A stretch of DNA of 64,000 nucleotides from Magallana gigas (Eukaryota). The notes below the pieces were generated by a model. That model worked only from the letters and a program-made list of their open reading frames with translations. It searched no databases and was not told the origin of the DNA. The DNA lies in the NCBI RefSeq assembly GCF_963853765.1, contig NC_088857.1, forward strand, positions 20,336,001 to 20,400,000, written 5' to 3'. Positions 14,860 to 17,800 of the stretch are shown here, one piece after another (position 1 is the stretch's first letter; each line of letters begins with the position of its first letter). The position numbers and the translations under genes are program-made.

Positions 14860-17800
14860 CTAATCAAAAAACTTGCATTGCTGGAAGAAGGAATCATCAT
14901 TTATCAAAGAGATATCAAAGAGAGAATCACCATCTACCTGATCTCTATTCTCCAGAATAACTTCTTCTGCCTGGTCATCACAAGGCTGCAGTACACTGAG
15001 CAATTGATCCAGTGTATCGCTTTGAAAGTCATTATCAACAATACAAGGCAGAGAAAAACAATCAAAATTAGCTGTATCTGAAGCACATGAAAACATGTCC
15101 AATTCTGGCAAGAAATCATCTCTTATGTTTGCTCCTTCTTCTCCAATTTCACTGGTTTGGTGTGTGCATTCATCTGATACACCACAGGTTGGGTACAATG
15201 CTGAGAGCAACTCTTCGGAGTCGTTGGATTCATCGGTTTCTTCATTCCATCCACCAACTGAGAAATCATCTTCATCAGGGAATGAATCTGTGTGTTCATT
15301 CACATACAGAGTTTCTGAATTTGCTACAATGGTTTGCACATTGCCAAGCGTTTCTTGGCAGGCAGTGTAAGTACTGCTTTGTCTTGGGAGTACCGGTACA
15401 CATGGTTTGCTGGAAGACAGAACAACAAATGAATCACTGTTTTGGGGTTGTAACAAATTGGTCACTAATTCTCCATCTCCCTGCTTCTCTTCTCTGTCAC
15501 ATCCATAAATGCAAGTTGGTGCTTGTTCAATAGATGCTGAAAGATATAATATACAGGATGCCCTTTACTCTTATTTTGTTATACAATATCATAACTATAG
15601 ATCTTTCTCACTTATTACGGTACACTTGGACCCATAGCTAGTATATACCATAAGTAATCAACTTTGATATGATCATTTAGTTTGGATTGTACTACCAGTA
15701 ACTTGTAGCATTGAAAGTCAGAACATGAATTTGCTTTTGGGTGTTTAATCCCGGGTGAACCCTTACTACTGTGGTATGATCAATTTTTGTTGGCATCAAT
15801 TTTGTGAATTAGATCTAAATGAATATTACCGTTTCAAGGATTAATGTAAATTTGTGGACAATGACCCTATCAATACAATTCTTTATTAGAAATTGCACTT
15901 CAATAAACATTTAATTTCATGGATCAACTCAACAAAGAAATTCCGAAAATTTGGTATTCAACAAATATTGATGAAACCACAGTATTCAATTATCATGAAT
16001 GAATTTTCATGCATTATACCTGATGGTAAGCTGAAAAGCACTGGATCCCCTTTACAAATAGGGTTATTCTCAGTCATCTCTTGTATAGGAGTGGTCGTCA
16101 AAGATATCTTTAGACCATATTGTTTGGCAATTTTTAGGAGCTCCTATAATATAAAACCAACCAAAACGCACATGGTCAGCATCATTCTCCTGACAAGTAA
16201 TCTCCAACTGTGAATCAATTACATGTAAGTTGCTAAATAACTTTACTTTGTTAAATACAGTATACAATATCAAAACATTTAAAAGTACCGCATACATTAT
16301 TTCAACACAAACATAATTAAATCATTCCTCCCCAAAAATGTGCAAGCAAAAATCAATTTTGATACTTCATATCCACATAAATGATTTATGAATGTTATAT
16401 TTATTATAATGTAATAGGAATGGAGGAATATTGAAAACATATGGCTGGACTGGGAATCAAACCCGGGACCCCTGCAACTCTAGTCAGGAGCTCTACCACT
16501 GAGCTACCCAGGCCAATATCCATGGTCTGTATAGCCCCAACTACTTCATTCCTCCCTCCTTAATGCACCAAATGTAATAGGAAAGGGGGAATATTGAAAA
16601 CATATCGCTGGAACAGGTATCAAACCCAGGACCCCTGCATATCTAGTCAGGAGCTCTACTAGACTACCATTGAGCTACCCAGGCAAATATCCATGGTCCA
16701 TATAGCCCCAACTACTACATTCCTCCCTCTTTAAATGTTCTTCGCCCTCGAAGATCACCCCAGGTTCTTCCCCTGGCAAGAGTTAACCTGTAAGTTCCAG
16801 GGGCAGGTCACAGCACCAAATGTAACAGGATGGGAGAAATTATAAATGACGGACCAGACCAGGATTCAAACCCGGGCGCCTTGAATCTCTAGTCAGGTGC
16901 TCCACCAATTCAGCTCTCTGGCGCCAGTATTTGAACTGGTCTGACTGTCACATTCCTCCCCCTTATTTGTAGTAATCCTGGTTACGGCACCAAATGTAAT
17001 AGGAAAGGAGGAATAATGAAAACATATAGCTGGACCAGGAATCGAACCTGGGACCCCTGCAACTCGAGTCAGGAGGTCTACCACTGAGCTATTCAGGCCG
17101 ATATCTACAGTCCATTTAGCCCCAACTACTATAATAAAAACAGTCAAATAATTTTGATACTTCTTCATAAATGATTTATGAATGTTATATTATTATAAAA
17201 TCAGTCAAAATTTTGCAGCAAAGGTTGAAAATGTAGTATAATTGGTTTTCAAAACTTTTAACAACAAAATAGTCTGAACAAGCCCTTAACCTGTGCAATT
17301 AAAAATTGTGTATTTCTCTGGAGTGGCTCAATCATTTTAAAAAGAACATTCTTAGATGCAAAACAAATCTCTATTTATCTTATCTAAATATACAAAATAT
17401 GTACCTGCAAACTATTGCCAACATTGTGATTCCAATCTGTATCCTGTTTTCTGGTGACTTCAACTAATTCTCCATTTGCTTTAAATTGCATCTTGCATGT
17501 TCCTGTGTATTTCTTTTTTCGATATCTTCTTTTCTCTACAATTTATGTTGAAAATCAGAAGGACCTGGTTGACTGTCTACAGTACTACAAAACCTGGTTG
17601 TCTACAGTACTACAAATTTTTTAGTTGCTCCCCTGACAAGCACAATAGTGAAACATTGCATAACAAGGAATGCTCTTGTTATGTATCAATAATATAGAAT
17701 TATACCAATAAAGCAAAGCAACATTCCTACAAGTATAACAATTCAGAGAGAAACAAAATTGTTTATTCTTGACAGTTTGCTATGTGTATGATGTACATAT

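Follow-up and report, generated by a model that had tools for sequence, protein, structure and literature searches.

A four-LTR Helenus array of two families in Magallana gigas, with a probable tRNA-His copy at one joint and a probable origin during reverse transcription

RESULTS

Structure of the array

The window analyzed here is a stretch of 64,000 nucleotides of the Magallana gigas genome (NC_088857.1, positions 20,336,001 to 20,400,000). It carries on its minus strand a 724-bp element with four LTRs in the order A-B-A-A, separated by spacers of 42, 101 and 24 bp and enclosed by one TSD (Table 1). The first-pass annotation had proposed this layout, and it was confirmed from the window sequence.

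Table 1. Parts of the array and of its target site, in minus-strand order
Feature	Position in window	Strand	Description
Host duplication, unit 1	17146..17206	-	Older tandem duplication of ~61 bp
Host duplication, unit 2	17145-17134 plus about 16405-16347	-	Second unit of the ~61-bp duplication, split by the insertion
Upstream TSD copy	17134..17137	-	4 bp; TTAT on the minus strand, ATAA on the plus strand
LTR A1	16995..17133	-	Helenus-2_CGi type, 139 bp; starts with TA (mutated TG), ends with TTACA
LTR A1, tRNA-like part	17027-17098	-	Both boxes (A, B) and T4 run present
42-bp joint, tRNA complement	16974..16992	-	19 bases, 18 complementary to the mature tRNA-His 3' end
42-bp joint, filler	16966..16973	-	8 bp; unrelated bases
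42-bp joint, PPT	16953..16965	-	Helenus-2C (B) type; no further spacer upstream
LTR B	16821..16952	-	Helenus-2C_CGi type throughout, 132 bp; 4-bp insertion
LTR B, tRNA-like part	16851-16923	-	Decayed; no T4 run
Complete internal part	16720..16820	-	Helenus-2_CGi (A) type, 101 bp; 13-base PBS and PPT
LTR A3	16573..16719	-	Helenus-2 type, 147 bp; 8-bp duplication in the tRNA-like part
24-bp joint	16549..16572	-	8-base PBS stub fused to 16-base A-type PPT region
LTR A4	16410..16548	-	Helenus-2 type, 139 bp
LTR A4, tRNA-like part	16442-16513	-
Downstream TSD copy	16406..16409	-	4 bp

Identity was 84-89% among the A LTRs and 69-70% between A and B. Two distinct LTR subfamilies were present in one insertion, as had been claimed. 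All four LTRs ended with TTACA. Three started with TG and A1 with TA, which is a minority state (4% of 113 other copies). The LTR hallmarks ascribed to the element were thus found as PBS, PPT, TSD and TTACA ends, with A1 as the exception at its start.

The cloverleaf with A and B boxes attributed to each LTR was recovered in part. Both box motifs were found in all three A LTRs, but the A box of LTR B was decayed and was not found by motif search. Against Rfam RF00005 (gathering score 29), A4 scored 37.6 bits, A1 31.4 and B 23.7, and A3 gave no match; ARAGORN called tRNAs in two of the four LTRs. A tRNA-derived SINE, judged by a 5' tRNA head, an A-rich or simple-repeat tail and a variable long TSD, was rejected, since the tRNA-like part lay inside TG...CA repeats together with PBS, PPT and 4-bp TSD.

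Family identity of the parts

In comparison with the supplement of PMC10886601, LTR-A was Helenus-2_CGi, LTR-B was Helenus-2C_CGi and the 101-bp spacer was Helenus-2_CGi-I. The name Helenus, given in the first-pass annotation, was right: both LTRs and the long spacer matched the published Crassostrea gigas families, and the tRNA-bearing type of TRIM was already in print under that name. The differences, counted by eye, from the Helenus-2_CGi LTR were 12 in A1, 13 in A3 and 8 in A4, of 139 sites, and the same counts were obtained as minority states among 113 genomic copies with two subfamily sites set aside. LTR B differed from the Helenus-2C_CGi LTR at 13 positions in 128, and the spacer from the Helenus-2_CGi internal part at 5 in 101 (both by eye). 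Overall, the window parts were 5-10% diverged from the published consensuses, and the spacer was A-type at all six sites that distinguish the published 2 and 2C spacers.

The published lengths of LTR and spacer are 139 and 101 for Helenus-2_CGi and 128 and 101 for Helenus-2C_CGi, both with a 4-bp TSD; the family PBSs are of 13-14 bases and of the tRNA-His type (PMC10886601). The LTR/spacer counts given there are 65/90 for Helenus-2, 260/45 for -2B and 1124/402 for -2C, and Pol III transcription of Helenus (TRIMp3) was not validated in that defining paper. The window element agreed with Helenus (TRIMp3) in being non-coding, under about 1.3 kb (724 bp) and bounded by LTR ends. It also had an internal PBS and PPT, the tRNA-His PBS of the bivalve -2 group, a 4-bp TSD, and a tRNA segment inside the LTRs that matched RF00005 in three of four, two of them above the gathering score. 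Among Helenus two-LTR arrays with intact ends, 42 of 62 had a perfect 4-bp TSD.

The window thus shares LTR and spacer lengths, tRNA-like core, tRNA-His PBS and TSD length with Helenus-2 and -2C as described in PMC10886601. It differs in having four LTRs, whereas each Helenus family is presented there as a two-LTR unit, with tandem arrays only for LTR-11_DR. The published family PBSs also lack the longer tRNA copy of the 42-bp joint. The main text of PMC10886601 contained neither 'chimer' nor 'hybrid'. A consensus with the A-B order was looked for and none was found within the material of PMC10886601.

A comparison with biv-TRIM (PMC6934838) had also been suggested, and the window element proved not to belong to it. 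Both are bivalve TRIMs with tandem arrays, but biv-TRIM, as described there, has repeats of 202-218 bp and an inner part of 77-80 bp with a conserved central motif, against LTRs of 128-139 and a spacer of 101 in the window. In that description biv-TRIM has no clear PBS and no tRNA-like LTR core; the window has both.

A second Helenus-2C LTR, 5'-truncated, was found elsewhere in the window (26103-26210, plus strand).

Target site, flanks and assembly

TTAT was found on both sides of the element on the minus strand; the probability of a chance match of two random local 4-mers was p=0.009. When the element and 4 bp were taken out of the sequence, the second unit of the older host duplication was restored. 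This showed that the TSD is 4 bp long and that both flanks come from one site. A long TSD, made of the ~60-bp flank duplication, was rejected: the repeat unit has its start upstream of the element, which interrupts the second copy.

Contigs from seven sequencing runs, one from each of seven studies, were compared; the runs were picked because they contained the stretch, and one may be the source of the window itself. The edge at 17133 was bridged in all seven and the edge at 16410 in at least five, with at least 31 letters on each side. Among the contigs listed, the 42-bp joint was spanned in at least three runs and the 24-bp joint in at least four. As contigs of other runs bridge its edges and joints, the array cannot be put down to misassembly. 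Among the joints listed for the seven runs (15 of 38), none came from an empty site or an intermediate allele, a count from contigs, which cannot show absence. Two bases of the filler (16966-16973) differed in two of the seven other runs, and for this reason its interpretation as a copy of an LTR end was dropped.

On either side of the element, at about 17870-17995 and 16020-16144 on the minus strand, there were open stretches with plausible splice ends. If these unverified stretches were exons, they would place the element in a same-strand intron. Pfam gave no match for six open stretches near the element.

A probable copy of tRNA-His at the 42-bp joint

The complementarity of the PBS to the tRNA-His 3' end, noted in the first-pass annotation, was confirmed, but the long match was in the 42-bp joint only and not in the 101-bp spacer. 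Compared with the tRNA-His genes of this genome, 18 of 19 bases of the joint were complementary to mature tRNA-His. At tRNA positions 14-18 the joint matched at five of five and the spacer at one of five. The complement at the joint exceeded the family PBS and stopped after base 19, to be followed by the filler and the B-type PPT. Judged from its sequence, 16974..16992 is likely to be a copy of the primer tRNA, marking the end of a captured plus-strand strong-stop DNA. The stop near base 18 may be set by a modified base of the tRNA, as in retroviruses.

Among 127 de-duplicated LTR-PBS junctions, 115 matched none or one of tRNA positions 14-18, and six, which had been fetched on purpose, matched four or five. 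A genome-wide pattern for the tRNA copy, with up to three mismatches, hit 30 places. In eight of them the tRNA mark followed a Helenus LTR (L031, L032, L074, L075, L076, L084, L087 and L093; L032 is the window and L075 is the same as L002). Fourteen were other, larger elements. Three more (L072, L073 and L088) had an 18-base mark but no recognizable LTR, and were excluded from the eight. The remaining five (L079, L080, L083, L086 and L089) were rejected as ordinary diverged junctions, not tRNA copies.

The sequence after the mark varied. It was unrelated DNA at L031 and L076, mid-spacer at L084 and L087, a B LTR in the window and at L002, an inverted LTR at L093, and the rest of the tRNA at L074.

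The last of these, L074 (G000:C8:40610478), was a three-LTR Helenus-2C array that ended in a 71-base reverse complement of tRNA-His including CCA. The tRNA copy was fused exactly at the PBS position, and there was no TSD. Eleven tRNA-His genes matched it at 99%, over bases 1-68 only, and CCA was absent from the flanks of all five tRNA-His genes that were read. The presence of CCA in L074, and its absence from the genes, indicated that L074 holds a copy of the mature primer. Priming of Helenus by tRNA-His, which the defining paper left to inference, is thus recorded in fossil copies of mature tRNA with CCA fused to LTRs.

At L093 (G000:C8:30673422), an LTR, an 18-base tRNA copy and an inverted LTR were enclosed by a perfect GATG TSD. 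The position of this joint within a perfect TSD suggested that such joints can form before integration. Another aberrant head-to-head LTR product like L093, with the perfect 4-bp TSD TCAA, was seen at L159 (G000:C4:33046239-33046488).

The copy at the 42-bp joint resembles a known by-product of other retrotransposons. In Ty3, strong-stop DNA is made repeatedly; the first such molecule reaches into the tRNA and builds up as a dead end, and the tRNA is not the source from which the Ty3 PBS is inherited (as described in PMC5371799). The latter fits the short PBS retained in Helenus. In Ty3 and Ty1, according to the same source, the first strong-stop DNA enters the tRNA primer and is unused in normal transfer, and we propose the same for the window joint. 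The difference is that 12 nt of tRNA were seen there, in yeast particles, whereas 18-19 nt are fixed here in an animal chromosome.

The mark also bears on a post-integration origin, by which a B LTR entered a pure A array through double crossover or ectopic gene conversion, with later deletions in two spacers. Flanks and TSD would then remain intact, B would come with its own PPT, and the exchange would be eased by spacer consensuses that, in the material of PMC10886601, are distinguished by only 6 sites in 101. A LTRs with a B-type spacer start exist (L157 and L179), and pure arrays are common among those with at least three LTRs (13 of 17). But tRNA positions 15-18 are in neither family spacer, so that conversion plus deletion cannot supply them; moreover, the mark recurs at eight places, and both short joints retain the PPT alone. 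We therefore regard gene conversion as unlikely.

Frequency of mixing between Helenus families

Exact LTR-PBS junctions (n=86) were A/A in 10 cases and B/B in 75; the only one that combined a B LTR with an A spacer was that of the window. For whole arrays, 279 loci were collected, 227 arrays were annotated, and 180 were left after 47 with the same 5' flanks were merged. The sample was gathered with searches aimed at A starts, PPTs, PBSs and chimeras, taking the first 100 places of each, and its shares are not genome frequencies.

At least three LTRs were found in 17 of the 180 arrays: nine pure B, four pure A and four mixed. The mixed ones were the window, L002 (A-B-A), L170 (A-B-B) and L186. 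No mixed LTR-spacer-LTR (A/B) element was found among 97 de-duplicated two-LTR arrays; the sole mixed LTR pair, L189, consisted of two abutting LTRs.

L002 had the order A, tRNA copy, B, A-type spacer, A, as in the window, but with another joint. Its LTRs were 16-17% diverged from those of the window, there was no PPT before B, and its flanks (TACA/ATAC) gave no clean TSD. The different joint and the divergence suggested an origin separate from that of the window array. L170 (G000:C5:50410699) was arranged as A-spacer-B-spacer-B; it had no TSD, and upstream of it lay a PPT-like stretch. L186 (G000:C7:2811902) was a Helenus-2C element nested in a spacer of Helenus-2B type; it splits this host spacer, and CAGG stands on either side.

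According to another suggestion of the first-pass annotation, one family would have inserted into the other's PBS region, here a B element or solo B LTR into an A element. L186 shows that B can come to lie in an A-type element by nesting. In the window, unlike L186, B had no TSD of its own, its own PPT stood before it and a complete PBS-bearing spacer after it, and the host spacer was unsplit. The probability of a nested insertion is accordingly close to negligible.

Further A-B copies with TSDs of their own, as a chimeric family would have, were also searched for, but each window joint was matched only once in the genome. Genome-wide joint patterns gave no sister copy sharing these joints, and elsewhere the closest DNA match was at 80%. 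The single occurrence of the joint means that no family was founded: the window array is a one-off and not a chimeric family. A separate short-spacer family was rejected on the same ground, the 42-bp joint being found once by exact patterns.

These results speak against a chimeric master, formed by recombination of neighboring elements and then transcribed and transposed as a unit. This was proposed for multi-LTR Cassandra elements with TSDs in pear (PMC4079214), and L002 is a second A-B-A element. However, the window joint occurs once, the best match elsewhere is the 80% just given, and the joint of L002 is different. The T4 run present in most A LTRs (86 of 96) would also tend to stop Pol III. 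We consider a transposing master highly improbable.

The T4 run after the tRNA-like part was absent in 160 of 167 B LTRs. Helenus-2C is the more abundant family, its LTRs being mostly without the run, and read-through may favor full-length Pol III RNA in this family. That absence of the run drives array formation was rejected, as arrays of at least three LTRs against two-LTR arrays numbered 9 and 54 in B and 4 and 42 in A, with no clear excess in B. Separately, about 30 Helenus-2C two-LTR arrays (L067 and similar) had a common 5' flank, which suggests that a single Helenus-2C insertion was multiplied within another repeat.

Candidate Gypsy helpers

The first-pass annotation had called for an autonomous element with a His PBS and the same LTR termini. 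Two sister Gypsy families answered this description, and they had the PPT and the TSD length in common with Helenus as well. The first, an 8.8-kb family, was found at seven His-primed places (L100, L101 and L109-L113). It encoded protease, RT, RNase H and integrase in Gypsy order, and had TGT...GTTACA ends and a full His PBS. The TSD was 4 bp in all four copies checked, one of them within a TA repeat. Its PPT was that of Helenus-2C over 16 bases. The copies are young, with LTRs of 1142-1154 bp that were 98-100% alike within pairs; several had broken frames, and two lay in tandem with a common LTR on C8.

The second was L271 (G000:C3, about 37101560-37110290), of 8,728 bp with an LTR of 1,024 bp. 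It had a full His PBS, a PPT of Helenus-2 (A) type and the TSD CAAT, and was 76% identical in protein to the 8.8-kb family in the best block. The PPTs of Helenus-2 and -2C differ by one base. When either PPT was searched for with TGT and two non-G bases after it, seven places were hit, six of the 8.8-kb family and L271.

In a low-stringency comparison of Helenus with 14 stretches containing His-primed elements, only PBS and PPT were common. Seven other His-primed elements, most of which look truncated, had no such PPT within 9.9 kb. PMC10886601 names a single His-primed Gypsy, Gypsy-39_CGi, linked to the His-primed Helenus by the PBS only. The internal starts of both families found here differed from that of Gypsy-39_CGi in Fig. 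S2 of that paper. From these shared signals we infer that the two sister families are candidate helpers of Helenus-2 and -2C, apparently other than Gypsy-39_CGi. Which autonomous elements move Helenus was left to inference in the defining paper, and there are now two candidate Gypsy families with the same signals.

DISCUSSION

Proposed origin of the array

The array is a single old insertion, in which parts of two Helenus families were probably joined end to end during reverse transcription within one Gypsy particle and probably integrated as one piece. A Gypsy helper would have co-packaged RNAs of Helenus-2 and -2C, for both of which tRNA-His is the primer. A B plus-strand strong-stop DNA would then have annealed, at the common PBS or at R-U5, to the minus strand of an A template, giving B-spacer(A)-A. 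To the left of this, a dead-end A strong-stop DNA carrying the primer copy would have been attached through an end-to-end jump involving a short filler, the B PPT being kept. A further joint of PBS stub and PPT would have added A4, unless a later deletion in a tandem produced it. The outer A ends would have been used by integrase, and the insertion has since decayed by about 6-10% per part with no further copying.

Several observations agree with this order of events. The nearest other copy of each part was 6-10% away, the parts being similarly aged, and PPT-only stubs precede both B and A4. The 24-bp joint can equally be explained by later deletion, other short spacers being broken at varied places. 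Other observations count against the model. The simplest product of the pairing step, a two-LTR B-spacer-A element, was found in none of the 97 two-LTR arrays, L002 lacks a clean TSD and a PPT before B, and the joints listed for the seven runs included no empty site.

Template switching between co-packaged RNAs had been offered in the first-pass annotation. A reverse-transcription chimera was supported, but in the plus-strand form and not as an R-region switch. By the classic R-region switch (the model of Sabot and Schulman), two co-packaged RNAs would yield a heterodimer that is integrated once. The single TSD, the outer LTRs of one family and a tRNA-like R region common to A and B are in its favor. 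As set out in PMC1950507, this model predicts that the outer LTRs are identical, that the inner LTR is chimeric and that the spacers are full. LTR B, however, is pure B-type end to end, two of the spacers are stubs, and the tRNA copy would require a second, separate event.

The outer LTRs add little to this comparison. A1 and A4 differed by 14.4%, against a median of 4-5% for A-type two-LTR elements with a perfect TSD (n=12), and at this divergence a common template of the outer LTRs cannot be read. A1 and A4 shared no informative minority state, and A3 and A4 shared three, which are of the weak CpG type. A test of shared states among A1, A3 and A4 was set aside as uninformative, the sharing being CpG-type only. 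Altogether, an R-region switch appears distinctly unlikely. Conversion, R-region switch and chimeric master can each account for some of the layout; the tRNA copy is left unexplained by all three.

A broader proposal can be made only tentatively, and we hold it somewhat more doubtful than not. Oyster Gypsy particles would carry several Helenus RNAs together, and reverse transcriptase would string dead-end strong-stop DNAs into multi-LTR cDNAs that are integrated. Helenus-2 and -2C would each have their own sister Gypsy helper, told by the PPT base. If this stringing is true, it would provide a route to TRIM arrays and to exchange across families that leaves copies of mature primer tRNA in the genome. 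Joining of plus strands, if true, would give a concrete origin for tandem and mixed TRIM arrays, which is still argued in the plant literature.

Comparison with other TRIM arrays

Tandem and chimeric TRIMs of plants (PMC13570524 and PMC4717578) have, like the window, at least three LTRs inside one TSD. They include two TRIM-08 elements of sugar beet with extra LTRs from TRIM-01 or TRIM-05 (PMC13570524). On the evidence of that report, mixed-family tandem TRIMs are rare, not unprecedented. The accounts of the plant arrays in these two papers appeal to template switching or recombination in general terms, and a retained primer copy is not mentioned in the portions compared here.

Cassandra (PMC7215508 and PMC4079214) resembles the window in having a Pol III-type gene fragment in each LTR and multi-LTR copies with TSDs; both template switching and inter-element recombination are proposed for its arrays in these sources. 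It differs in being derived from 5S rRNA, with a PBS of tRNA-Met type and a 5-bp TSD, whereas the window is tRNA-like with tRNA-His and a 4-bp TSD. The inner LTRs of Cassandra, as depicted there, are each flanked by a full PBS and PPT; two of the window's three spacers are stubs.

The template-switch complexes of Triticeae (PMC1950507) are, as proposed for the window, chimeras of reverse transcription integrated once with a TSD. They are described with an R-region switch, a mosaic inner LTR and identical outer LTRs. In the window, by contrast, the inner LTR is of one type throughout, and PBS and PPT are where the joints lie.

Neither the element class nor the two families nor tandem TRIM arrays are new, and the window locus is a decayed one-off. 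A literature search found no report of mixed Helenus arrays, retained TRIM primer copies or these helpers; its scope did not extend to Repbase or to PMC7750724 (re-shuffling of beet Cassandra), which may describe similar chimeras.

The window also contained two tandem arrays, of 166-bp units at 61210-63248 and of 254-bp units at 133-1793. The array of 166-bp units presumably resembles the oyster Cg170 satellite.
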